Assembly (NCBI GenBank): GCA_023146355.1 | Contig: JAGLCH010000223.1 | Span: 1 to 47,975 of the forward strand | Reading direction: 5' to 3' | Source of the DNA: Bacteriovoracaceae bacterium | Lineage (GTDB): Bacteria; Bdellovibrionota; Bacteriovoracia; Bacteriovoracales; Bacteriovoracaceae | Length of the DNA stretch: 47,975 nt | Part shown: in pieces, positions 32,588 through 43,256 of the stretch | Position numbering within the stretch: position 1 is the stretch's first letter | Layout: each line of letters starts with the position of its first letter | Translations under genes and position numbers: made by a program | The notes under the pieces: model-generated | The model's database searches: none | What the model saw: the letters and a program-made list of their open reading frames with translations, nothing else | Told to the model about the DNA's origin: nothing

Positions 32588-32612
32588 AAAAAGGCCCTAG
32601 GGCCTTTTTTTA
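32588..32612. terminator. Bidirectional terminator between convergent genes
   Basis: AAAAAA-GGCCC-TA-GGGCC-TTTTTTT palindromic hairpin flanked by A- and T-runs. It lies between the + gene end (32585) and the kce end (32610). Confidence 0.6.
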
Positions 32613-33428
32613 TAATCCTAAAATTTCTCTTGTCTCTGCGGGGGTTGCTACTGGTCGATCCATCTCAAGTGCTATCCTTGCAACTCGCGCTACAAACTCT
32701 GCATTAGATTTGGCATGAACACCTTTAGTGAAATACATATTGTCTTCAAGGCCAACACGCACATGACCACCCATAGCTATGGCGTGGGCCGTAAGTGGAA
32801 GTTGAAAACGTCCAACCCCAGCGACACACCATGTTTGTCCTTCAGGTAGCATATTAACGAGCATATTGAGGTTATGAATAGTTCCACTCATTCCACCTGG
32901 AACTCCGAGTACAAAGTCAATATGGTGTTTTGCTGGAATCCATCCCTTCTTTACATATTTTGGAACTGCTTCCATCATACCGTAATCGAAGATCTCAAGC
33001 TCAGGCATTACGCCATACTTAACTTCATCTGCTGCTATTGTTTTGATAATGTGTTCTGTATTTTCAAAAATTTCTGGTCCAAAATTTAGGGTGCCCATCG
33101 AAAGAGTTGCCATCTCAGGTCTAAGTGTCAGTGGTTCACATCTTAGTTTGAGAGGAGTTCCTGCAGCACCACCTGTAGTGTACTGGATAATTACATCCTT
33201 ATTTCTTTCTCTGATCTTTTCTGTTACTTCTTTGAATGTTGCTACATCTTGAGTTGGGTTACCATCAATATCTCTAACGTGAAGATGGATGATACTGGCC
33301 CCAGCGGCCGCAGCATCTGCTGCAGCGTCTGCGAGAGCATCAGTGGTCTCCGGGAAGTATGGATAGATCTCTTTATTTACTTCAGCACCAATAACAGCGC
33401 ATGTAATGATTAGTGGTTTACCTGCCAT
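32610..33428 (-). CDS. kce: 3-keto-5-aminohexanoate cleavage enzyme (BKACE family)
   Basis: 272 aa. LIITCAVIGAE N-terminus and IIHLHVRD, a TIM-barrel BKACE signature. Located in the lysine-fermentation cluster. Confidence 0.85.
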   Translation of the reverse strand: MAGKPLIITCAVIGAEVNKEIYPYFPETTDALADAAADAAAAGASIIHLHVRDIDGNPTQDVATFKEVTEKIRERNKDVIIQYTTGGAAGTPLKLRCEPLTLRPEMATLSMGTLNFGPEIFENTEHIIKTIAADEVKYGVMPELEIFDYGMMEAVPKYVKKGWIPAKHHIDFVLGVPGGMSGTIHNLNMLVNMLPEGQTWCVAGVGRFQLPLTAHAIAMGGHVRVGLEDNMYFTKGVHAKSNAEFVARVARIALEMDRPVATPAETREILGL

Positions 33429-33437
33429 GATAATCTC

Positions 33438-34679
33438 CTAAATCTTTGCACATTCAATGAGTGACTCTTCAATTGCCTTTACTACATAATCCATATCTTT
33501 ATATGTATGTGTTGCAGCGATATAGCCGTGATGGAAAGGTTGAAGGAATACTTTCTTTCTAATTAGCTCAGTATAAAAAGCAGGACGTCTCTTTTTATAT
33601 TTTTTATCAGCATCTTTGTTGAAGGTGATAAATGGCATCCATGGACAACCTGACAGAGTTACACTTACTGGTGAGTTTGCAATCACAGGTTGTAACTTTT
33701 CTTCTAGATAGTTTCCTAGCTTCTTGATTGTTCCTAGGATGTCATCTCTTTCCATAATCTCAATGGTCTTAAGAGCAGCAGTCTGTTCGAGACTGTTTGG
33801 AAAGAATGTAGAGCTTAGGAAGACTTCGTTGGCGATAACATTCATTATTTTACGTTGGCCCACGACTGCACCAATTGGATAACCATTTGCCATCGCTTTG
33901 CCGAATACAGATAGGTGAGGAGTTACGCCAAATTCTGCTTGGGCACCACCCATATTTACGCGAAATCCTGAACGTATCTCATCAAAAATGAGAACAATAC
34001 CGTGCTTCTCAGCAAGTTCTTTACAGCCCTCAAGAAATCCCGGTTTTGGCATTTCAACTTCGAATCCAAGAGGGTGACCAATTGGAGTTACAATAATTGC
34101 AGCAGTATCTGTACCGTGCTCTTGAATTAGCTTTTCAAGGCTTGCAAGATCATTGTAATGAAACTCATGAACATCTTCATAAGTTTTCGGAAGAACTCCT
34201 CCCTTTACTTCAACGCACCAGTCATGCCACCCATGGTAACCACAGCGAAAGACTTTTGATCTTTTAGTATATCCGCGAGCAATTCTAATCGCAGTTGTTG
34301 TTGCATCAGAACCAGTTTTTACAAATACTGACTGTTCACAACTTGGGATGATCTCACGTAGTTTTGCTGCGAGTTTATTTTGAACTTGTTGGGTAAGGCT
34401 CATGCAGAAGCCTTTATTTTGCATCTGGTCGATAACTGCATTGTCGATCTCTTCAACACGGTGACCAATAATGATTGGTCCATATGAGCAGAGCATGTCA
34501 ATATACTCGTTACCATCTACATCTTTAACTCGTCCGTCTTTAGCCGATTCTAGGAAAATAGGATATTCGCCGGCAACAAAGTTATATGGACGACGGATAC
34601 CTAGGATTGCTCCAGGGATCAGATCAAGTGCTTCTTCGTATAGCTCATTTGATTTATCTAGTGTTAGTTTTTCAGTCAT
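33438..34679 (-). CDS. Class-III (GSA-aminomutase-like) PLP aminotransferase; probable 3-aminobutyryl-CoA aminotransferase (Kat-type)
   Basis: DVDGNEYIDMLCSYGPIIIGH, FDEIRSGFR and PLP-Lys context SVFGKAMANGYPIG. ATG 34679 follows AAGGGAG and sits 1 nt after the kamE stop. The function is assigned from operon position and was not tested. Confidence 0.55.
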   Translation of the reverse strand: MTEKLTLDKSNELYEEALDLIPGAILGIRRPYNFVAGEYPIFLESAKDGRVKDVDGNEYIDMLCSYGPIIIGHRVEEIDNAVIDQMQNKGFCMSLTQQVQNKLAAKLREIIPSCEQSVFVKTGSDATTTAIRIARGYTKRSKVFRCGYHGWHDWCVEVKGGVLPKTYEDVHEFHYNDLASLEKLIQEHGTDTAAIIVTPIGHPLGFEVEMPKPGFLEGCKELAEKHGIVLIFDEIRSGFRVNMGGAQAEFGVTPHLSVFGKAMANGYPIGAVVGQRKIMNVIANEVFLSSTFFPNSLEQTAALKTIEIMERDDILGTIKKLGNYLEEKLQPVIANSPVSVTLSGCPWMPFITFNKDADKKYKKRRPAFYTELIRKKVFLQPFHHGYIAATHTYKDMDYVVKAIEESLIECAKI

Positions 34680-34680
34680 C

Positions 34681-35424
34681 TTATGCTCCCTTCTTATCAA
34701 TTAGTTTCATTACAATAAATGTTGCAACATCAGTTGGCACTGATCCAGGCCCAAAGCCGGCATCAAATCCAAGTTCAATTGCAAGGTCATTTGTTACTCG
34801 GGGTCCACCTGCCACAAGTACAAAGCGGTCTCTAACTCCCTCTGCTTCACAGAGCTCAATAAACTCAGTGAAATTTCTTATATGGGCATCTTTTTGAGTA
34901 ACTGTTTGAGATACTAGAATTGCTTCAGCATTTGTTTCCAGGGCCTTCTTGAGGAGCTCTTCACATGGAACCTGTGCTCCCATATTAAATGCTTCCATCT
35001 CAGGGTATCTTTCTAGGCCATAGTTTCCACTATATCCCTTCATATTCATGATCGCATCAATACCAACAGTGTGGGCATCAGAGCCAATTGAGGCACCAAC
35101 TACAGGAACCTTTCTATTTAGCTCCTCTTTGATTTTTTTGTTGATCTGGTAGTAATCCCAGTTCTCAGTCTTAACTTCTGTTGCAACAATTGTTGAGTAG
35201 TCTAGTGTTGGCCTTGCCTTTCCATAAACGACAAAATAAGTGAAGCCCTTACCAATTGTCTCTGAAAAAGAAATTTGTGGCTCATCAATATTTAGCAGTC
35301 TTGCATATTCTTCTGCCGCTTTTTTTGCCTTTGCTCCATCGTCGATTGGAAGAGTAAAGGATAGTTGGATGATGCCATCGTTAAGGGTGTCTCCATATGG
35401 TTTAATGATTTCTTGATTACTCAT
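34681..35424 (-). CDS. kamE: Lysine 5,6-aminomutase beta subunit (B12- and PLP-binding)
   Basis: DxHxxG cobalamin motif (GSDAHTVGIDAIMNMKGY) and a Rossmann-like B12 domain with VLVAGGPRV. The start ATGAGTAA overlaps the kamD stop. Confidence 0.85.
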   Translation of the reverse strand: MSNQEIIKPYGDTLNDGIIQLSFTLPIDDGAKAKKAAEEYARLLNIDEPQISFSETIGKGFTYFVVYGKARPTLDYSTIVATEVKTENWDYYQINKKIKEELNRKVPVVGASIGSDAHTVGIDAIMNMKGYSGNYGLERYPEMEAFNMGAQVPCEELLKKALETNAEAILVSQTVTQKDAHIRNFTEFIELCEAEGVRDRFVLVAGGPRVTNDLAIELGFDAGFGPGSVPTDVATFIVMKLIDKKGA

Positions 35425-36979
35425 TGATAACCCCCTCTTTCTCAATTTGGCTCATAATTGGGTTAGTGTAGTCTGCTGATTTTATAAATACACCTTCAAG
35501 GCCTTTTCCCCCGTCCATTGCACGCTTTATATCTGCAAAGTGACCTTTGCCTATTGCTTGCATAAATCCCTCATCTTCAAGTTGAGTTAGAAAGCTTTCA
35601 ACTTCATCAAGAACGTGTTGTGCACGTTTTTGTATCAGGCCATCCTTTTTAAATTCAATTTCACTTCCAAGGTCTTTCGCTACGTTAAAAATATAATTGA
35701 TATTTTTAAGTGCTTTAGCACGGTCTTGCATCAGTGGTGTATGGATGGCCTCTGTGAGTATGCCGGCAAGGTGAATCCCTTGGTCAGTGGTGACGGAGGC
35801 AATATTAAACATCGTATCCATTACATGAGAATAGAATATATCAGTGCTTTTATATTTTGTTGGAGGCATGTATTTCAGTGGAGCATTAGGGAATAACTCA
35901 CGTGCTAGTTGCGCGTGGGCCAGTTCTAACAGAAATGCGTTTTCAACTTCAGGATTAATCTCAAAAGCATGACCTAGTCCTAGAAGATCATCGGTGAGGA
36001 GTGCTCTTTTTCCAATTGCTTCATTAATCAATTGTGACGCTGTTACAGTGTAGGCATTGTCAATTGCATCAGATGTCGTGAGGTAGTTGTCTTCACCCGT
36101 ATTGATTACAATCTTAGCTCTTGAGCACAGTAGGCGAGAAAAGTACTGGTCAATAAAAGTTCTCTGAATATTAATGTCACGGAAAAGGATGCCATACATT
36201 GAGTCATTGAGAAGCATATCAAGATCTTCAATCGCAGCACAGGCCGCAATCTCTGCCATGCATAGCCCGGATGAGTAATTTACAAGGCGAACATAGCGTC
36301 CTTCTTTTTTCATTTCATCATCAAGTGCTTCACGCATAATTTTAAAGTTTTCTTGTGAAGCATAGGTACCGCCAAATCCCTCGGTAGTGGCACCATAAGG
36401 TACATAATCTAAGAGAGACTGCGCGGTAGAACGAATAACTGCAATAATGTCAGCACCAGAATTAACTGCTGCCCGTGCCTGGGTTCTATCTTCATAGATA
36501 TTTCCGGTGGCAACAATAAGGTATTTCCAGGGGGTGGGTGGAAGAGGACAGCTTGCCTGCTTCTCTGCTTTTCTAAAGCGTGTTCTATCTAAAATACCAA
36601 CTGCTGAATCTGATAATTCTTTTTCTTTTTTATCTATTTCGCTTTTAGAAAATTCTGTGATGTTCCCAAAATCGATTTCACCACTAGCGATAAGGTCTGC
36701 TGTGGTTTTAGCATCGCGACCAGACTTTAGTACTGCTGCTGCAAAGTGCCTTGAAGATCCTGTCGCCAGCTTGCCTTTCTCTTTTAATATTTCAATCAGC
36801 GCATTGGGGAGTGGGATACCTTCATCAGTGATTCCATCAACTCCGTAAAGTCTAAGTATTGTTCTTTCAACAGAAACGGAGGATCTACTTTTTACAAAGT
36901 CCTCAACTTGAGCAGCAATATTATCAGCGAGTGTTTTTACTCTCTGAACCTGCTCGGGACGAAGGCCAATTTGTGCCAT
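35417..36979 (-). CDS. kamD: Lysine 5,6-aminomutase alpha subunit
   Basis: 520-aa TIM-barrel subunit. Size, partnership with kamE, and conserved stretches (VERTILRLYGVDG, YASQENFKIMREAL, NTGEDNYLTT) fit KamD. Confidence 0.85.
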   Translation of the reverse strand: MAQIGLRPEQVQRVKTLADNIAAQVEDFVKSRSSVSVERTILRLYGVDGITDEGIPLPNALIEILKEKGKLATGSSRHFAAAVLKSGRDAKTTADLIASGEIDFGNITEFSKSEIDKKEKELSDSAVGILDRTRFRKAEKQASCPLPPTPWKYLIVATGNIYEDRTQARAAVNSGADIIAVIRSTAQSLLDYVPYGATTEGFGGTYASQENFKIMREALDDEMKKEGRYVRLVNYSSGLCMAEIAACAAIEDLDMLLNDSMYGILFRDINIQRTFIDQYFSRLLCSRAKIVINTGEDNYLTTSDAIDNAYTVTASQLINEAIGKRALLTDDLLGLGHAFEINPEVENAFLLELAHAQLARELFPNAPLKYMPPTKYKSTDIFYSHVMDTMFNIASVTTDQGIHLAGILTEAIHTPLMQDRAKALKNINYIFNVAKDLGSEIEFKKDGLIQKRAQHVLDEVESFLTQLEDEGFMQAIGKGHFADIKRAMDGGKGLEGVFIKSADYTNPIMSQIEKEGVINE

Positions 36980-37221
36980 TATCAGCTCCTTTTATAACGT
37001 TAGGGTTTGGGTTGTTTGGGTATAGTTTAAGTACCTAAATTATCAAATTCTAGAGCATTTTAAAAGAGTTCAGCACACAATTGTTAATTGTAATGAAAAA
37101 ACTACCATTATAAGAAGTTTTATTCTTACAATGGCCAGCTCTATGGTTGACTTTGCGCATCATGTTATGTAGTTTTCACAAACGAAACTTAGCTAAGCAA
37201 ACCATCATAGGGGGATATATT

Positions 37222-37548
37222 ATGTTTAAGAAGGTATTATTGCTTTCTTTGGCCTGTATTTTACTTACAGGTTGTAAGAAGAAGAGTTCAGTTCCTTACT
37301 TTTCAAAATTAAAAAGTGGGAAAATTATCAGTAAGTTTATTCCAGCACGTTTATTTGCAAAGGAAACATCTAGAGTTATTAATACTCTAAGTGCTTCAAC
37401 ATTAGAAACAATCTCAAAACAAAAAACTAAGAGTGATTGGAATCTGTCAGGTGTTGATCTTGGCCTATCACTTAGTAGTACTGTAGGTGTAGGTCCTGTT
37501 TCTGTTGGCACCAATCCTGTTTTTATACTTTATTTTAGAAAGAAGTAG
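37222..37548 (+). CDS. Lipoprotein carrying one copy of the W...SxSG...aromatic-basic module
   Basis: The in-frame ATG 37222 follows GGGGGA. It has a canonical lipobox (LLTGC) and a C-terminal module DWNLSGVDLGLSLSSTVGVGPVSVGTNPVFILYFRKK. Confidence 0.6.
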   Translation: MFKKVLLLSLACILLTGCKKKSSVPYFSKLKSGKIISKFIPARLFAKETSRVINTLSASTLETISKQKTKSDWNLSGVDLGLSLSSTVGVGPVSVGTNPVFILYFRKK

Positions 37549-37556
37549 GAGAAATC

Positions 37557-38807
37557 ATGAAATTTATTTTTATTGCTTTAATAGTGTTGTCTAGTGCAAC
37601 TTTTGCTTCAACAGACTTTACAGGCCAGCTTCCGAGTAGTTGGGTTCAGTTGCCTGAGGATGGTGGAGTTCAATCTGGTAGTATAATGAAGGGCGGACAG
37701 TCTCTCGGTGCTGCTGCGGAGGCCGTTGATACAATCTTTTCCTCTAATCATGACGTTTTGAAAAAGGTTAAAACAGTTGAGAAGAATGGCTGGAGTCTTA
37801 CTGGCTTCCAGACAGGCCTTTATATCTCTGAGTCTGGACTTGTTGGTCTTGCAACTATGAAGGGTGTTCAGGGGATTCGACTTCATTGGAAAAGATATGA
37901 CGTTCCTGAGGTAAAAGAGACTGTCAGTAATAATACTATTCCTTTAACCTCAAAAATGACTTCAAATGAGATCCTTGCAGAAATTGGGCCGGCAATTCAA
38001 ATTGCTCTCAAATCAAAAAAAATCAAAGTTAAGGATGAGCGTCTTGTTCGAGCGGGCATAACAAATGCAGCAAGCAAATACCAAAAAATGATTCAAGGTA
38101 TAGAGTCTGCTCCTACTTCACAGTGGTTTGTTAATAAGCTTAGATTTGACATATCAATCTCAGCATCAGGGGTTGTTGTTCCTGGAGCCTCTGCTGGCGC
38201 TGCGATGAGGTTTCGCTTTGAATGGAGCCGTAAAGAAAGTGATCTAGTTAGGACTAGGATTAATTATAAAACTCCTACGTCAAAATTTGTTGCAGCAATG
38301 CTTGAGGATGTTGAGTTCTTCGAATTGCACTCGAAGGGGAATCCGAAGTTTAAGCTAACTAGCTTCTTAACTGGAATTAGCCTGACTGCTTCAGGAAATA
38401 TCGCCCTAGTTAAATCAAAAGTTGGAGTCGCTGGATATATTTATTTTGCTCGCAGGAAGGCACGTGTAGCAAGTGTCCCCGCAAAAAGTACAAAGTATTC
38501 ATACTCTTTACTGGCCAAATCTACTCCTCAACTTGAGTCATATGCAAATAGAAGTAATATTGAATTTGCAAAGAACTCAAATGGCACAACACTGTTCCAT
38601 TTGGACCGGGATAACTTTAGACGAGGACTTCTTAAAGCTGGGGAAATTTCACGCTTCTTTGTTGATAGGGCAGAGAGATCTCAGGGAAAGGTTTGGGGAA
38701 TTAATATAGTTGAAAATCAATTCAACCTATCTGTTTCTGGAACTGTTGGCGTTGCTGGTATTTCAGGTAGCTCAGTGTTTAGTATGTTGTATAAGAGAGT
38801 GGAATAG
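37557..38807 (+). CDS. Secreted 416-aa protein made of four copies of the same module
   Basis: AGGAG RBS and signal peptide MKFIFIALIVLSSATFAS. The four modules end in HWKRY, EWSRK, YFARRK and LYKRVE. Confidence 0.65.
   Translation: MKFIFIALIVLSSATFASTDFTGQLPSSWVQLPEDGGVQSGSIMKGGQSLGAAAEAVDTIFSSNHDVLKKVKTVEKNGWSLTGFQTGLYISESGLVGLATMKGVQGIRLHWKRYDVPEVKETVSNNTIPLTSKMTSNEILAEIGPAIQIALKSKKIKVKDERLVRAGITNAASKYQKMIQGIESAPTSQWFVNKLRFDISISASGVVVPGASAGAAMRFRFEWSRKESDLVRTRINYKTPTSKFVAAMLEDVEFFELHSKGNPKFKLTSFLTGISLTASGNIALVKSKVGVAGYIYFARRKARVASVPAKSTKYSYSLLAKSTPQLESYANRSNIEFAKNSNGTTLFHLDRDNFRRGLLKAGEISRFFVDRAERSQGKVWGINIVENQFNLSVSGTVGVAGISGSSVFSMLYKRVE
37791..38804 (+). repeat. Four protein-level repeats of a ~37-aa module within the 416-aa ORF
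   Basis: Modules lie at nt 37791-37898, 38124-38234, 38349-38459 and 38694-38804. Each is preceded by a helical linker. Shared pattern: W/F-x-hydrophobic ... h-S-h-S/T-x-S-G-x-V/I ... G ... h-x-h-x-aromatic-x-K/R-K/R. The similarity is at the amino-acid level only, not the DNA level. Confidence 0.6.
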
Positions 38808-38815
38808 GGGTAAGT

Positions 38816-39145
38816 ATGAAAAATATATTTGTAATTTGTTTGACGATGATGTTGTTTTCAAGTGCTTTTGCGACCACGCCAAGCTTGTATAAAAGTAAAT
38901 ACTCAAAGTATACTTTTGGGGTTTCTGAGAAAATATCGAAAATGATTCATGAAGAATTAAGCTCCGTAGACGCTATCCTTCAGGATGTTGACGCAATGGT
39001 GGGGCTGGATTCTGATGCTGGCCATACTCCATGGGCATTCTCGAGATTTCGTTATAGAGTAGGTGCTTTTTTTACTATGAAGATACCTCGTATTGCATCA
39101 TTTAAAATTCAATCTCATCTAGAGTTTTATTTTACTAAAAAATAA
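38816..39145 (+). CDS. Small secreted protein with one divergent copy of the module
   Basis: Signal peptide MKNIFVICLTMMLFSSAFA and C-terminal TPWAFSRFRYRVGAFFTMKIPRIASFKIQSHLEFYFTKK. The Trp is at residue 73, the same position as in the 37222 lipoprotein precursor. Confidence 0.55.
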   Translation: MKNIFVICLTMMLFSSAFATTPSLYKSKYSKYTFGVSEKISKMIHEELSSVDAILQDVDAMVGLDSDAGHTPWAFSRFRYRVGAFFTMKIPRIASFKIQSHLEFYFTKK

Positions 39146-39186: not shown

Positions 39187-39220
39187 ATGCCTCCGGTACT
39201 TAATCGGAGGCATTTTAATT
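39187..39220 (+). terminator. Rho-independent terminator closing the three-gene cassette
   Basis: ATGCCTCCG-(9 nt)-CGGAGGCAT perfect 9-bp stem followed by TTTTAATTTT. Confidence 0.75.
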
Positions 39221-39292
39221 TTCTGCAGAGGAGAAGTGTTTTAACGTGGTTTTCTAATTCATGTTATATTCTTTTTTGATATCAAATAGGAA

Positions 39293-39658
39293 ATGGGCGC
39301 AATGACAAATTTTTTGATCTATATAAAAAGTGAATTGGCTTACTTAGCTCTACTCTTTATTTTTTTTGTTTTGCCACTAGGCCTTTTTTTTCAATTTTCA
39401 AGTTACCCATTACCAAAAATTCAGTATGTCGTTCTTGGGGTATTACTTCTCTCGCAATATTTCTTTTACAGTGAAAAGGCCTATCGTCGACGAACTGAAT
39501 GTAAGGCATCCCTCCAATTAAGGAAGGAGATGGGTAAAATGCCATCAATTAAAATAACTAACGCACGTGTTAATCTTCTTATTGTTTGTAGGGGCGTAAG
39601 CATCTGTACTGCCGCTTTATCTGTCCTGACTCTCATGGTTATTTATCGACAGTTTTGA
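39293..39658 (+). CDS. Hypothetical small membrane protein
   Basis: Three hydrophobic segments, no homology recognised, weak start context (ATG 39293 or 39302). It could be spurious. Confidence 0.3.
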   Translation: MGAMTNFLIYIKSELAYLALLFIFFVLPLGLFFQFSSYPLPKIQYVVLGVLLLSQYFFYSEKAYRRRTECKASLQLRKEMGKMPSIKITNARVNLLIVCRGVSICTAALSVLTLMVIYRQF

Positions 39659-39680: not shown

Positions 39681-41258
39681 TTAGTGTAGCTTTTTCTTGA
39701 TCTCTCTTTTGAACTCTTCTGAAAGGGGGAAGTGCATTGCAATTTTAAGGGGTGTCTTCCCATTTAGAATTGTATGCTCTAGGTTATTCTCGGTAATCTT
39801 TAATACCTCAAATGGCATTCTTCCAATAAGATCCTTAACGGTCAGCTCTCGATCAATCTCTCGATCAAACTCTAAATCTTTCATTTTGTAGAGTGATATC
39901 TCTTTGTTTTGAAGGATACTAGGGTAGTGAGTGGATGCTAAAAATACTAAATCTTTTTGTCCCATAATTTTCAGAGTAATGTCGCACAAAGTGGCACCAC
40001 TTTCTGGACTAGTTGATTGAAACAACTCATCAGAAAAGATGTAACTACTATCTTCAAAATCTTGAGAGTAAAACTCCAGCTCCTGACCAAAACTTGAAAT
40101 ATTTTGGTCAAGTGAGCCTGAACTTTTGAGTAGAATGTTGATTGTTGTGGGGTATTTTAGCTTTATGCTCTTTGCAGGAATAGGTAGGCCAAACCTAACA
40201 CATTGTAGAATGAAATAAAGTGTTTTTAGAATCGTTGTTTTACCTGACATATTTGAGCCATAAATAATATTGGCGCCACTATCTAATAAAATGTTTAGGG
40301 GGATATATTTATCTTTTCTATTTTCCTTAAGTATGGGAAGAATTCCGTCTTTGAGTTCAATTTCAGTTGTTTGGGTAAATACAGGAAGACAGAGTTTATT
40401 ATCTAGTGCTGTTAGGCAAATGGTATATTTTAAAAGGCGGTCCTTCCTTGCATGATAGATGCGAAGAAACACTTCGGTATATGCTGAGATCTCATAATTG
40501 ATTTCCCTCAGTTTTACATCGATTGTCTGCTTAAACAGAGTCGTGAGTTCTTCTCTCTTCTTTTCAATTTCTTGAAGAACTGGAGTCAATTTATAATCAA
40601 TAGTATAGTGCGTACCCTCTTTGGTTACTTTTAGTTCACTTGATTTAGATGCCTTTTTTACCACATCTGTTTCAGATTCAAATGACTTGGGGTAGGGGTA
40701 AATCATTCGATGATTTATTTCCTTACTAACCTTCTTTTCATAATCTTTTAGCACATGGTTAAATGTATCATCGACAGTATGGATTTCCTCTCTTAAGGAT
40801 TTTTCTACAGGACTTAGCTTTAAAGAAGTGGCCTCACCATCAGCATATTTTTCTAGGATACCAAGAAGAAGATCTATGGTACCCGTATTTGAAAGAAGAG
40901 GGTGGTGTTTTCCTTCACGCGCAATGAGGTCTCGCTCGACCTTTAAGAACTGGTAAAGTTGGTGAAGATGAAACTGCTCAAGTTCTTTCTTTTGTAGAAA
41001 GGGGATTAGGGAGTCTAGTTGAGGAAGCAGGCGTCCTCTACTGATTAGTTGGTCAATCGAAATTTCTCCAGCATCATGAAGATCTAGTAACTCCCCGAGT
41101 TTCTTGAAGTGCGCCACGCCCTGCTCTTTACTCAGAGGCACTAGGATTGTATGAGGAATTAGTGGTATATCTCGATTAAAGGTTTCCAGGTAATTCTTTA
41201 TACCAAGCTCTACGTGGAGCTCACTTTTAATGCTGTCTTGTACTAACTCTAACCGCAT
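39681..41258 (-). CDS. MutS-domain-V-only ABC-type ATPase with a helical N-terminal region (no mismatch-binding or clamp domains recognisable)
   Basis: Walker A GSNMSGKTT (nt 40236-40259), Walker B/D-loop-like IFSDELFQSTSPESG and LASTHY (MutS FATHY). The start overlaps the upstream P-loop gene by 32 nt. Confidence 0.75.
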   Translation of the reverse strand: MRLELVQDSIKSELHVELGIKNYLETFNRDIPLIPHTILVPLSKEQGVAHFKKLGELLDLHDAGEISIDQLISRGRLLPQLDSLIPFLQKKELEQFHLHQLYQFLKVERDLIAREGKHHPLLSNTGTIDLLLGILEKYADGEATSLKLSPVEKSLREEIHTVDDTFNHVLKDYEKKVSKEINHRMIYPYPKSFESETDVVKKASKSSELKVTKEGTHYTIDYKLTPVLQEIEKKREELTTLFKQTIDVKLREINYEISAYTEVFLRIYHARKDRLLKYTICLTALDNKLCLPVFTQTTEIELKDGILPILKENRKDKYIPLNILLDSGANIIYGSNMSGKTTILKTLYFILQCVRFGLPIPAKSIKLKYPTTINILLKSSGSLDQNISSFGQELEFYSQDFEDSSYIFSDELFQSTSPESGATLCDITLKIMGQKDLVFLASTHYPSILQNKEISLYKMKDLEFDREIDRELTVKDLIGRMPFEVLKITENNLEHTILNGKTPLKIAMHFPLSEEFKREIKKKLH

Positions 41259-42216
41259 GAAAGTCCTCTTTGAAGATATTTGTTACTGGAACAGTACCAG
41301 GGTCTAAATCAAACTCACTATCTTCTTCTTTGATAAATATATGCTCAACTATCACCGGATGGAATAGAGCTAGAAGTGGATTAAAGATCCTCTTATTAAC
41401 CGACTGCTTAAGTGTAATGTTGTGGTACAAGGTAAAATTATCAAGCACAACTGTTAGCTTTTTGTATGGTGCGAGAAAACTATATAAAGATTTGGTTAAT
41501 GCTCCTGCTAGATAAAGTATACACTCTTTATCCAGCATCTCTTCTAGTTGTGATTTGAGTTCATTATCCATGAAGGGAATCATTGTACTCTTATATTGGA
41601 GCGTGTTATTCGGACCAAGAAGGATTGATTTTACTGATTCTGTTTTGTGCTCTGAAATTGCGCTATGCCGTTTAGGGTCGCACGTGGGAAACTTCAGGGG
41701 TTCGAGTAGGTCTTCTGCTTTTTGTCGCTGCTCTTTTCTGCTCGAAATAAGAAGTGAAAAGTAGAATGCGTCAGATACTTCCGGAGATGCCACAAACTGA
41801 CGGTCAATAGATCCATCTATCATCAAAGTTAGATCATTGAAGCTCTCACTAATTGTTTTTTTTATTTTTTGAATCTCATGCTTCTCATTTGGGCCCTCCA
41901 GAATAATCTTAAAAGGAGTAATGGTCCTGCCCATAACAAATTGCTTTTTATAGGTAGGAGGAGAAAAGACTTTTATGGTTTCGTATTTTCCATTGTGATC
42001 AGTGAGATGAGTACCTGCTGTAATAAAATAGCTATCGGTAATTGTTGTGATTATAGGTTTACTATGGCCCTCGTAGTTATCGAGTTTTTCCCCATTTAGT
42101 CCAATGGAGGTAATACAGATTGGGGAAGCTTCCCGACTTAACTTGTCATAAACAAAGTTGAAGCTAGTAGTCTTCCCCGCATTTTTATCAGATCCGATAA
42201 ACGAGATTGTGTACAT
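41227..42216 (-). CDS. P-loop NTPase of unknown function
   Basis: N-terminal Walker A IGSDKNAGKTT (nt 42166-42195) and a possible Walker B LTLMIDGS. The ATG lies 2 nt after the kdd stop. Confidence 0.6.
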   Translation of the reverse strand: MYTISFIGSDKNAGKTTSFNFVYDKLSREASPICITSIGLNGEKLDNYEGHSKPIITTITDSYFITAGTHLTDHNGKYETIKVFSPPTYKKQFVMGRTITPFKIILEGPNEKHEIQKIKKTISESFNDLTLMIDGSIDRQFVASPEVSDAFYFSLLISSRKEQRQKAEDLLEPLKFPTCDPKRHSAISEHKTESVKSILLGPNNTLQYKSTMIPFMDNELKSQLEEMLDKECILYLAGALTKSLYSFLAPYKKLTVVLDNFTLYHNITLKQSVNKRIFNPLLALFHPVIVEHIFIKEEDSEFDLDPGTVPVTNIFKEDFHAVRVSTRQH

Positions 42217-42218
42217 CT

Positions 42219-43256
42219 TTAGCAGTACACGCGCTCGAAAAGTTCTCTTAGTTTCTTATGTTCTCTGATTACCTTTAAAGAGATCTCATCGTTGTTTGGA
42301 GCATAACCATTACCAACAATTAAAAGAGCATCAGAGCCAATTCCCTCTGCCCCAAGTGCGGCCTTTGAGAAGCTTGTTGCCATCGAGAAGAGGTAAACTG
42401 TTCCATCAACTTTCGCTGCCATGATTGAAGACATTTCAATATTGTCCACAGATGCAACGTTGATTACGAGGTCGGCCATCTCACCATTTGTAAGGTCAGA
42501 TATTGATCTTTGTACTGCAAGAGGGTCAGTCGCATCGACATCGAGAATATGGTCACAGCACTCGAGTTCTTTAAGTCTCGCTTGTCCACCTTTACCAGGT
42601 TCAATTGCAATCAGTTTTCCTGTGTTTCCAAGAATCTCTCTTGCAACAACAGAGCAAAGTGATCCTGACTTTCCACCTGCCCCAATAATCACTACAGTTT
42701 GTCCAGGTTTAACAAGCTTATAGGCCTGAGCTGGAGCTCCCGCGACGTCAAGTACAGCAAGAGCTAGAATCTGGTCCATATCTGTTGGGATCTTAGCAAC
42801 TGGTCCCGATGGGAAAAATATTGCGTGGCCCTTAATTTTTACTTGGTCACGCTCAGGGAAAATTTCAATAATTTCATCAATGTGAAGTGGTGTTAGTGAA
42901 AGAGAAACAAGCGATGCCATCTTGTCACCAACAGTGAAGCCATTTTTATTAGGGTATTCTGGGCCGATCTCTTTAACTGTTCCAAGAAGCATCCCTCCTG
43001 AACCCGTTACAGGATTTTGCTGCTTTCCACGCTCGGCAACAATTCCACAAATCATCTCACCGACTTTCTTAAGGTCGCCGCCACAGGCCTCTTTCATTTG
43101 AGTGAAAGATGCAGAGTCGATATTGAGTGTATCAACTTCAACGAGTAGCTCATTTGAGCGGATGGGTAGGGTATTATCAATTTTTTGGGCATTTTGTGGA
43201 AGCGCATTCGCTGGCTCGATGACGCGATGTGTTCCATACTGGCAGATGTGAGTCAT
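42219..43256 (-). CDS. kdd: L-erythro-3,5-diaminohexanoate dehydrogenase
   Basis: 345 aa. N-terminal YGTHRVIEP...LPQ and the LNIDSASFTQ segment match my recollection of Kdd. Rossmann motif VVIIGAGGKSG. Confidence 0.8.
   Translation of the reverse strand: MTHICQYGTHRVIEPANALPQNAQKIDNTLPIRSNELLVEVDTLNIDSASFTQMKEACGGDLKKVGEMICGIVAERGKQQNPVTGSGGMLLGTVKEIGPEYPNKNGFTVGDKMASLVSLSLTPLHIDEIIEIFPERDQVKIKGHAIFFPSGPVAKIPTDMDQILALAVLDVAGAPAQAYKLVKPGQTVVIIGAGGKSGSLCSVVAREILGNTGKLIAIEPGKGGQARLKELECCDHILDVDATDPLAVQRSISDLTNGEMADLVINVASVDNIEMSSIMAAKVDGTVYLFSMATSFSKAALGAEGIGSDALLIVGNGYAPNNDEISLKVIREHKKLRELFERVYC

Follow-up and report, generated by a model that had tools for sequence, protein, structure and literature searches.

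A three-gene cassette of exported helix-hairpin proteins in Bdellovibrionota, with a repeat unit related to the Pepco and Trypco1 domains

This report concerns a three-gene cassette, p1-p2-p3, on the plus strand of a 47,975-nucleotide stretch of DNA from a Bacteriovoracaceae bacterium (contig JAGLCH010000223.1, referred to as a whole as the window). Judged from profile matches across its family, the helix-hairpin unit that occurs four times in the large p2 protein is homologous to the Pfam Pepco and Trypco1 domains, and the trio is found almost only in Bdellovibrionota. We see about an even chance that the three proteins derive from a cytoplasmic immune effector family gated by proteases and, once exported, assemble with one another into a composite amphipathic sheet or barrel of beta-strands in the envelope. 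No paper describing the trio was found in the literature searched.

Trypco1 and Trypco2 were described as small proteins found together with trypsin-like peptidases in nucleoside triphosphate (NTP)-dependent conflict systems (Kaur et al. 2020, PMC7159879), and a preprint of 2025 unites them with Pepco in a single group (bioRxiv 10.1101/2025.11.14.688446). In that preprint SsPepco (WP_069919158.1), from Streptomyces subrutilus, forms heat- and sodium dodecyl sulfate (SDS)-resistant beta-barrel pores of 9-10 subunits with a hydrophobic exterior and a charged lumen, requires an amphipathic N-terminal helix, and becomes toxic once Avs4 cuts its C-terminal tail after Ile97 (bioRxiv 10.1101/2025.11.14.688446). 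The name Pepco spans at least three Pfam models, and their mutual relationship was not confirmed by sequence here.

A Pepco/Trypco1-like unit in the large protein

The p2 gene (37557-38807, +) encodes a predicted secreted protein of 416 residues, with a Sec signal at residues 1-17, an LPxxWxxLPE motif and four tandem helix-hairpin units. Its family came to light because an exhaustive phmmer search, with p2 against 1.84 billion cluster representatives, was used where word-indexed searches had failed; the latter, run with p2, with a 40-sequence family alignment and with an alignment of unit 1, returned the query itself plus one protein at most. By phmmer, p2 has relatives in at least 381 clusters at E<=1e-3 and in 304 at E<=1e-10, mostly of 380-500 residues, that align over their whole length with about 25-32% identity. 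The 40-sequence alignment shows each of the four modules to be conserved; in it, G94, G97, G357 and G395 are invariant, W79, W111, W190, G205, G214, R220, W223, W380 and S392 are nearly so, and an N-terminal LPxxWYxLPE motif is kept. The names of 20 homologous clusters are all "hypothetical protein" or blank, and their named sources are Bdellovibrionota or "Deltaproteobacteria" metagenome-assembled genomes (MAGs).

A sequence-only reading of the window had been unable to assign the repeated module to any family, but the family-wide comparison supports an assignment. When 40 members of the p2 family were scanned against Pfam, 27 matched Pepco (PF24393; best E 9.1e-11, matches counted at E<=0.1) and five matched Trypco1 (PF19493; best E 1.6e-8), with no third Pfam family recurring among them. 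Two of ten members scanned individually exceed the Pepco gathering cut-off, P0002 with 33.1 bits and P0005 with 38.1 bits, and in P0005 positions 40-102 of the profile lie on residues 56-118, running from the segment before hairpin 1 (helical in the AlphaFold2, AF2, model of window p2) into the hairpin. The unit that carries the match differs from member to member: P0002 and P0005 match through unit 1, P0012 through unit 2, P0148 through unit 4 and window p2 through unit 3, which alone scores 13.4 bits. Since the same profile is reached through different units in different members, we take the repeat unit to be a Pepco/Trypco1-like domain and p2 to be a four-fold tandem of it.

Extent of the repeat

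The sequence-only reading had counted one, four and one copies of the module in the three proteins, and the six strings do sit where it placed them, at residues 72-108 of p1, 78-114, 189-226, 264-301 and 379-416 of p2, and 72-109 of p3. For the five copies in p1 and p2 the resemblance goes beyond chance: seven of the ten pairs among modules 1-5 reach Smith-Waterman z values of 4.2-7.4, with 0-2 of 300 shuffles attaining the score. Profile-profile alignment with hhalign joins the four p2 unit families to one another at a probability of 91-97% (P 1e-6 to 4e-10); for the p1 family against the p2 units it gives 85-94%. The shuffle statistics and the conservation across the family speak against a repeat that arose by chance or from low complexity, and this reading is rejected.

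The sixth copy fared differently, since neither pairwise z nor a hidden Markov model (HMM) detects it. Because the shuffle and HMM statistics leave p3 out, we regard the repeat as confirmed for 1+4 copies and place p3 with them only by its likeness in position and pattern: it shares the succession of signal peptide and helix, and its C-terminal hairpin stands at the matching position. At the level of families, hhalign gives a weak match of p3 to unit 1 (51%, P 1.6e-4) and less than 10% to units 2-4; its match to the p1 family reaches 77%, but with the signal peptides inside the alignment. The finer description of the module was partly right. A Trp does open five of the six copies and an ending of aromatic followed by basic residues is roughly present in all six, but the exact SxSG motif said to lie at the centre occurs in only three.

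Co-conservation, fusions and distribution

Whether the three genes belong together is answered by their relatives, in which they have the same order in every context examined. In all of the 16 loci that have upstream flank, the gene directly before the large one is p1-like, and in most loci a p3-like gene follows. Three metagenome contexts of homologues show the small-large-small arrangement among otherwise unrelated neighbours, with proteins of 114/440/106, 91/442/93 and 109/445/107 residues. The small proteins have recognizable family patterns of their own: IP(L/V)xG(L/I)DxxG, a helix and W.LR..VGxG...GxGP...P+xRxxF in p1, and a helix followed by W.LRxFxLRxxPxxGxx(I/V)PxxxxxxI(V/I)PExEFxW in p3, to which the p3 of the window conforms (KIPRIASFKIQSHLEFYF).

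The partnership of p2 and p3 is further documented by four natural fusions of the two, in locus L019 (3460-5151, +), in locus L020 (6610-7926, -) and in the homologues P0098 and P0039. The L020 fusion has a non-hydrophobic linker where the signal peptide of p3 would be. The P0098 and L019 fusions have a lipobox-like N-terminus, and therefore the lipid anchor can sit on p2 and not on p1.

To map the distribution, a degenerate DNA pattern for R..FR.GL.[KR]A..[IM]..[FY]F was scanned over one genome per GTDB species, giving 27 loci, 15 of them confirmed by the family HMM (hmmsearch). By label, nine confirmed loci belong to Bdellovibrionales, two to Oligoflexales, and one each to Bdellovibrionota, Pseudobdellovibrionaceae and Bacteriovoracaceae. 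The remaining bin labels are a "Pseudomonadota" MAG (L006, JAYWBY010000222.1) and a "candidate division WWE3" MAG (L032, JBBRLF010000008.1). Both of these carry full trios, and their neighbouring genes (polyphosphate kinase, HAMP/PAS histidine kinase, ABC ATPase) do not settle the taxonomy; they are likely, though unproven, to be mis-binned Bdellovibrionota contigs. One Bdellovibrionales MAG (F1-140-MAGs054) has three diverged cassettes on three contigs, L012, L019 and L023, whose large proteins are 25-48% identical, and the trio is therefore a multi-copy family in some genomes.

Beyond the trio itself, an all-against-all comparison of open reading frames (ORFs) in 18 loci found no other conserved gene and no protease. 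The three metagenome contexts likewise hold no peptidase, and their neighbourhoods consist of housekeeping genes. In one homologue context (L003, 385-2512; L004, 3193-5320) the trio is preceded by a 531-residue CarboxypepD_reg/Big_1 protein and a 186-residue BamC_C-like lipoprotein, a pairing that is not kept elsewhere.

The p1 and p3 homologues appear to fall into two subtypes, tailed and tailless. Pro-rich C-terminal tails extend past the last strand in homologues from L003, L012, L017, L018, L022-L025, L030 and L032, with the motifs ...FSNxKxPxxP in p1 and ...RxxPxGWxxYKP in p3; they recall the cleaved inhibitory tail of SsPepco. The proteins of the window and those of the Oligoflexales type have no Pro-rich tail and end right after the aromatic-basic motif.

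Predicted structure and amphipathicity

The view of the module as a beta-hairpin that follows a helix is upheld by the AF2 model of p2. Built from the 40-sequence alignment, the model has a mean predicted local distance difference test (pLDDT) score of 83.9 and a predicted template modelling (pTM) score of 0.86, and each of its four modules is a beta-hairpin. Hairpin 1 (37788-37898, +) has strands at residues 83-98 (as 83-90 and 95-98) and 107-113, with W79, G94, G97, G103 and W111 invariant or nearly so across the family. Hairpin 2 (38121-38234, +) is long and regular, with strands at 190-208 and 211-224 and with W190, G205, G214, R220 and W223 conserved. Hairpin 3 (38346-38459, +), the site of the window protein's own best Pepco match, has strands at 265-285 (265-276 and 282-285) and 293-299, and the C-terminal hairpin 4 (38691-38804, +), in which W380, S392 and G395 are conserved, has strands at 380-399 (380-391 and 397-399) and 408-414. 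Helices at 51-69, 136-152 and 158-183, 240-258, and 351-374 precede the four hairpins in turn.

All four hairpins show a strict two-residue alternation of hydrophobic and polar positions across the 40 sequences. One face is aliphatic and aromatic; the other is 50-97% charged near the base (70-97% in hairpin 2) and turns to Ser, Gly, Ala and Thr toward the tip. A Trp marks the start of each hairpin and an aromatic residue followed by Arg or Lys its end, so that an aromatic-plus-basic collar surrounds the base. The AF2 model of the natural p2-p3 fusion P0098 contains three hairpins that are 18+15 residues long. Its p3 part has a pLDDT of only 30-55, because the alignment there is about two sequences deep, and the model is therefore silent on how p2 and p3 pack.

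The sequence-only reading had called the module neither curli-like nor OmpA-like; in line with this, neither sequence nor fold leads to known outer-membrane proteins (OMPs) or to other solved structures, although curli and OmpA were not specifically compared. Foldseek with the p2 model found no PDB entry at E<1e-3 (TM-score <=0.14) and no meaningful neighbour in BFVD, the P0098 model likewise had none in PDB, and sequence and profile searches of PDB chains gave no match. No OMP family is among the Pfam or NCBIfam matches. The same reading had denied the module an OMP beta-signal, and this holds for window p2, which ends in YKRVE, but not for the 59 of 151 family members that end in ...NxxF-COOH.

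A proposed assembly and its alternatives

The assembly we propose would be built from three Sec-exported paralogues of a single unit, one or two helices and an amphipathic beta-hairpin of about 38 residues, in 1+4+1 copies. After export, the six hairpins would pair edge to edge to give one composite amphipathic sheet or a closed barrel, with 12 strands per 1:1:1 heterotrimer or with more in a larger ring. The hydrophobic face would be turned to lipid or to the helices and the charged and small face to the lumen or solvent; the aromatic-plus-basic collar and the helices would lie at one membrane interface, with the small-residue tips reaching across. In this organism, p1 would use its lipid to anchor the assembly to an envelope membrane. 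An immune pore-former would thereby have given rise to a form that resides in the envelope and needs no protease.

Three features agree with such a composite sheet: the alternation pattern, the length of the hairpins, and the free sheet edges of the single-unit partners. A multi-chain sheet or barrel had already been put forward as speculation from the sequence, and it is now made plausible by the p2-p3 fusions and by the homo-oligomeric barrels of the preprint, but the membrane location and the choice between a barrel and a helix-packed sheet go beyond these observations. More generally, complex formation, barrel closure, membrane insertion and a role in predation, as a channel or in defence are things that we infer only. 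The assembly may serve as a channel in the envelope, in attack on prey membranes or in defence; given the restriction to a predatory phylum, a predation-related role is attractive but unproven. A bolder form of the proposal strikes us as doubtful: a self-assembling hetero-oligomeric barrel, independent of the barrel assembly machinery (BAM), in which the order of hairpins around the ring mirrors the gene order p1 / u1-u4 / p3, and which would have arisen in predatory Bdellovibrionota from the domain of a cytoplasmic immune "suicide pore", now put to use outside the cell to perforate prey membranes or as a new kind of envelope channel.

Several observations weigh against the proposed assembly. 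The first group concerns the link to the effector family. The p2 of the window falls short of the Pepco gathering cut-off of 27 bits: it scores 20.9 (E 5e-4), with residues 257-295 aligned to profile positions 65-106. For p1 and p3 of the window Pfam gives no match, their families are essentially without a direct one, and no Trypco2 match occurs among the 40 p2 family members. The SsPepco sequence itself scores as Trypco2 (PF19631, 65.6 bits) and not as PF24393 or PF19493, and hhalign of the unit, p1 and p3 profiles against it stays below 3% probability. Because SsPepco is thus a Trypco2 protein without measurable similarity to the units, any transfer of function depends on how the preprint groups Pepco, Trypco1 and Trypco2 and on likeness of design.

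A second group concerns the three chains. The p3 module has pairwise z values of at most 1.4 against the others, an HMM of modules 1-5 run over the six-frame ORFs of the window (filters off, E<100) recovers p1 and p2 and misses p3, and the sequence kinship of p3 to the unit must be called weak. Nor is the lipid anchor universal, with some p1 homologues having LVGC, LTGC or SGC and others a plain Sec signal, and with lipobox-like N-termini on 21 of 151 p2 homologues. Finally, the confident AF2 monomer fits a soluble alpha/beta protein, with helices burying the hydrophobic face of the sheet, as well as it fits a pore protomer.

This last point leads to the strongest alternative, a tentative possibility on the unlikely side, in which the three are soluble periplasmic alpha/beta proteins whose helices permanently cover the hydrophobic sheet face, and which act as scaffold, binding or lipid-carrying proteins. 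The monomer model is compact as well as confident, and a two-layer alpha/beta sandwich gives rise to dyad alternation as well. The p2 model matches no OMP, porin or pore-forming-toxin structure by Foldseek, and no direct link connects the cassette to an experimentally shown pore former. However, hairpins of 18+15 residues with an aromatic-plus-basic collar and uncharged, small tips would be unusual for a globular sandwich, and the units are homologous to a family presented in the preprint as membrane-active effectors. Moreover, the single-unit p1 and p3 would expose their sheet edges unless paired with p2.

It is considerably less probable that p2 is a conventional BAM-inserted OMP, an 8-stranded barrel with large helical loops, with p1 and p3 as accessory envelope proteins. 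Four hairpins do amount to eight amphipathic strands, the ...F(Y/Q)NxNF-COOH ending of the 59 homologues resembles an OMP C-terminal signal, and in one context a BamC_C-like lipoprotein is encoded two genes upstream. Against this, many members besides window p2 are without a terminal aromatic residue, the structure and family searches returned no OMP barrel, and the BamC-like neighbour is not kept across the loci. By sequence, p2 is homologous to the cytoplasmic Pepco/Trypco1 domains, and long helices separate all the hairpins where an OMP usually has short periplasmic turns and long external loops.

The least probable alternative, a canonical anti-phage abortive-infection effector like Pepco/Trypco that is kept latent and whose protease is encoded elsewhere, can draw on the sequence relationship to Pepco/Trypco1 and on the likeness between the Pro-rich tails of many p1/p3 homologues and the cleaved tail of SsPepco, but it has against it the export of all three proteins, the tailless window versions, the housekeeping neighbourhoods, and the want of a PADLOC match, of an adjoining protease or sensor in the window and of a conserved neighbour across the 18 loci.

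Locus layout and export signals

The three consecutive plus-strand ORFs match the description of the sequence-only reading exactly, and independent gene callers on the source contig give the same three genes. The first, p1 (37222-37548, +), encodes a predicted lipoprotein of 108 residues with one C-terminal helix-hairpin unit, the hairpin itself being encoded at 37435-37545 (+). The last, p3 (38816-39145, +), encodes a predicted secreted protein of 109 residues with a Sec signal at residues 1-19, a helix and a divergent C-terminal hairpin (39029-39142, +) bearing the motif KIPxxASFKIxxxxEFYF. Between them, p2 is annotated as hypothetical protein KAG61_07600 on a 116-kb scaffold of a Bacteriovoracaceae MAG. 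The spacers between p1 and p2 and between p2 and p3 are both 8 nucleotides, and purine-rich stretches resembling ribosome-binding sites precede the starts (GGGGGA for p1, AGGAGA for p2, GGGG for p3).

Export signals on all three chains, read by eye, agree with those proposed before: a LLTGC lipobox on p1 and Sec-type signals on p2 and p3. The N-terminus of p1 reads MFKKVLLLSLACILLTGC, with the signal and lipobox encoded at 37222-37275 (+) and a helical linker after them; L-T-G-C at positions 15-18, ending in Cys18, agrees with the lipobox consensus [LVI][ASTVI][GAS]C, and NCBIfam gives weak lipoprotein signal-region matches for p1. Predicted cleavage would fall after ...SSATFA, before S, in p2 and after ...SSAFA, before T, in p3. 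The chains end in ...YFRKK (p1), ...SMLYKRVE (p2) and ...YFTKK (p3).

The terminator expected after the cassette is there, as a terminator-like element at 39187-39223 (+) whose hairpin (39187-39213) has an 11-bp stem with 6 GC pairs and a 5-nucleotide loop, followed by a T-rich tail. At the other end, a possible promoter can be read from the sequence at 37147-37175 (+), with TTGACT at 37147-37152, a 17-nucleotide spacer and TAGTTT at 37170-37175; it is missing from the consensus scan list because its -10 element fits three of six positions.

Genomic setting

The cassette, together with the small ORF that follows it, is reversed relative to minus-strand genes on both sides (32610-36979, - and 39681-43256, -). 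One side holds kce/BKACE, a class-III aminotransferase and the B12-binding and alpha subunits of D-lysine 5,6-aminomutase, and the other a MutS-domain-V-like ATPase, a 329-residue ORF and a KDD_N (KDD-type) dehydrogenase. These flanking genes look like one lysine-fermentation cluster, and the placement of the cassette within it suggests insertion into an operon. Despite this apparent insertion, the G+C content of the cassette equals that of the window (0.384 vs 0.392). A tblastn search of plasmid and phage collections found no match to p2, and nothing therefore points to an origin in a mobile element. In the window the cassette adjoins neither a protease nor a sensor gene, and a PADLOC scan gave no match.

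Just 3' of the terminator lies a hydrophobic ORF of 121 residues (39293-39658, +; 118 residues in the gene call of the source contig), which has a promoter-like site of its own at 39241-39270. It has no Pfam or PADLOC match and is not kept beside the trio in other loci.

Significance

All members of the Pepco/Trypco group known to date are cytoplasmic death effectors of anti-phage systems, gated by a protease. Should the assembly be as proposed, the cassette would be the first exported, heteromeric and covalently pre-linked version of this group, and would show that a pore module of immune systems can find new use in the envelope. It would also add a third multi-chain route to a membrane beta-barrel, beside the toxin-type and the TolC-/secretin-type routes, and would offer a concrete, conserved candidate for the breaching of prey membranes or for a specialisation of the predator envelope. 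Since p2 has a fold without neighbour among solved structures, it is a target for structural genomics. Even if the proteins prove to be soluble and periplasmic, they constitute three linked protein families of unknown function that are found almost only in predatory bacteria.

Comparison with known systems

In the beta-pore-forming toxins (alpha-hemolysin/leukocidin, aerolysin and MACPF/CDC), each protomer contributes an amphipathic hairpin of about 35-40 residues, alternating between hydrophobic residues and Ser, Thr or Gly, to a composite barrel, and the two-component leukocidins are a precedent for hetero-oligomeric barrels. The cassette hairpins show a measured hydrophobic/polar alternation of the same kind. 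There is no match to these toxins in sequence or fold, however, and the cassette differs from them in having helices beside every hairpin, four linked units and a lipoprotein partner.

Closer in lineage is PopA of Bdellovibrio bacteriovorus, a pentameric OMP with a composite beta-wall that is reported to enter the inner membrane of prey (PMC12228718). Like the proposed assembly it is oligomeric, belongs to the envelope of a member of the same predatory phylum and has a non-canonical beta-structure, and it shows that composite beta-walls exist in the lineage; unlike the cassette, it is a single-gene homopentamer of porin-like barrels and not a helix-hairpin repeat. Relatedness to PopA was rejected, its sequence being unrelated and PopA being absent among the Foldseek matches listed (PDB copy to April 2026).

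SsPepco resembles the cassette in general design: it combines an amphipathic helix with amphipathic strands and oligomerises through pairing of strands, and the cassette hairpins have the same polarity pattern. SsPepco, however, is a single-chain homo-oligomer that depends on cleavage and kills its producer, whereas the cassette would give a hetero-assembly of pre-linked units outside the cytoplasm.

With the canonical Pepco and Trypco1 proteins the cassette shares a homologous helix-hairpin unit and similarly small sizes, of about 75-115 residues. The canonical proteins are small (about 110-120 residues), stand alone and are encoded beside a trypsin- or caspase-like protease with sensor domains; that they have no export signal we infer from the E. 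coli toxicity assays of the preprint, which does not state it. In the cassette, by contrast, the units are exported, occur four in tandem in p2, are spread over three genes and have no protease partner. Two defining features of the group, the neighbouring trypsin- or caspase-like peptidase and the small, stand-alone protein without export signal, are thus missing here, and the cassette is therefore not a member in the usual sense but a new exported, tandem and heteromeric variant of the Pepco/Trypco design.

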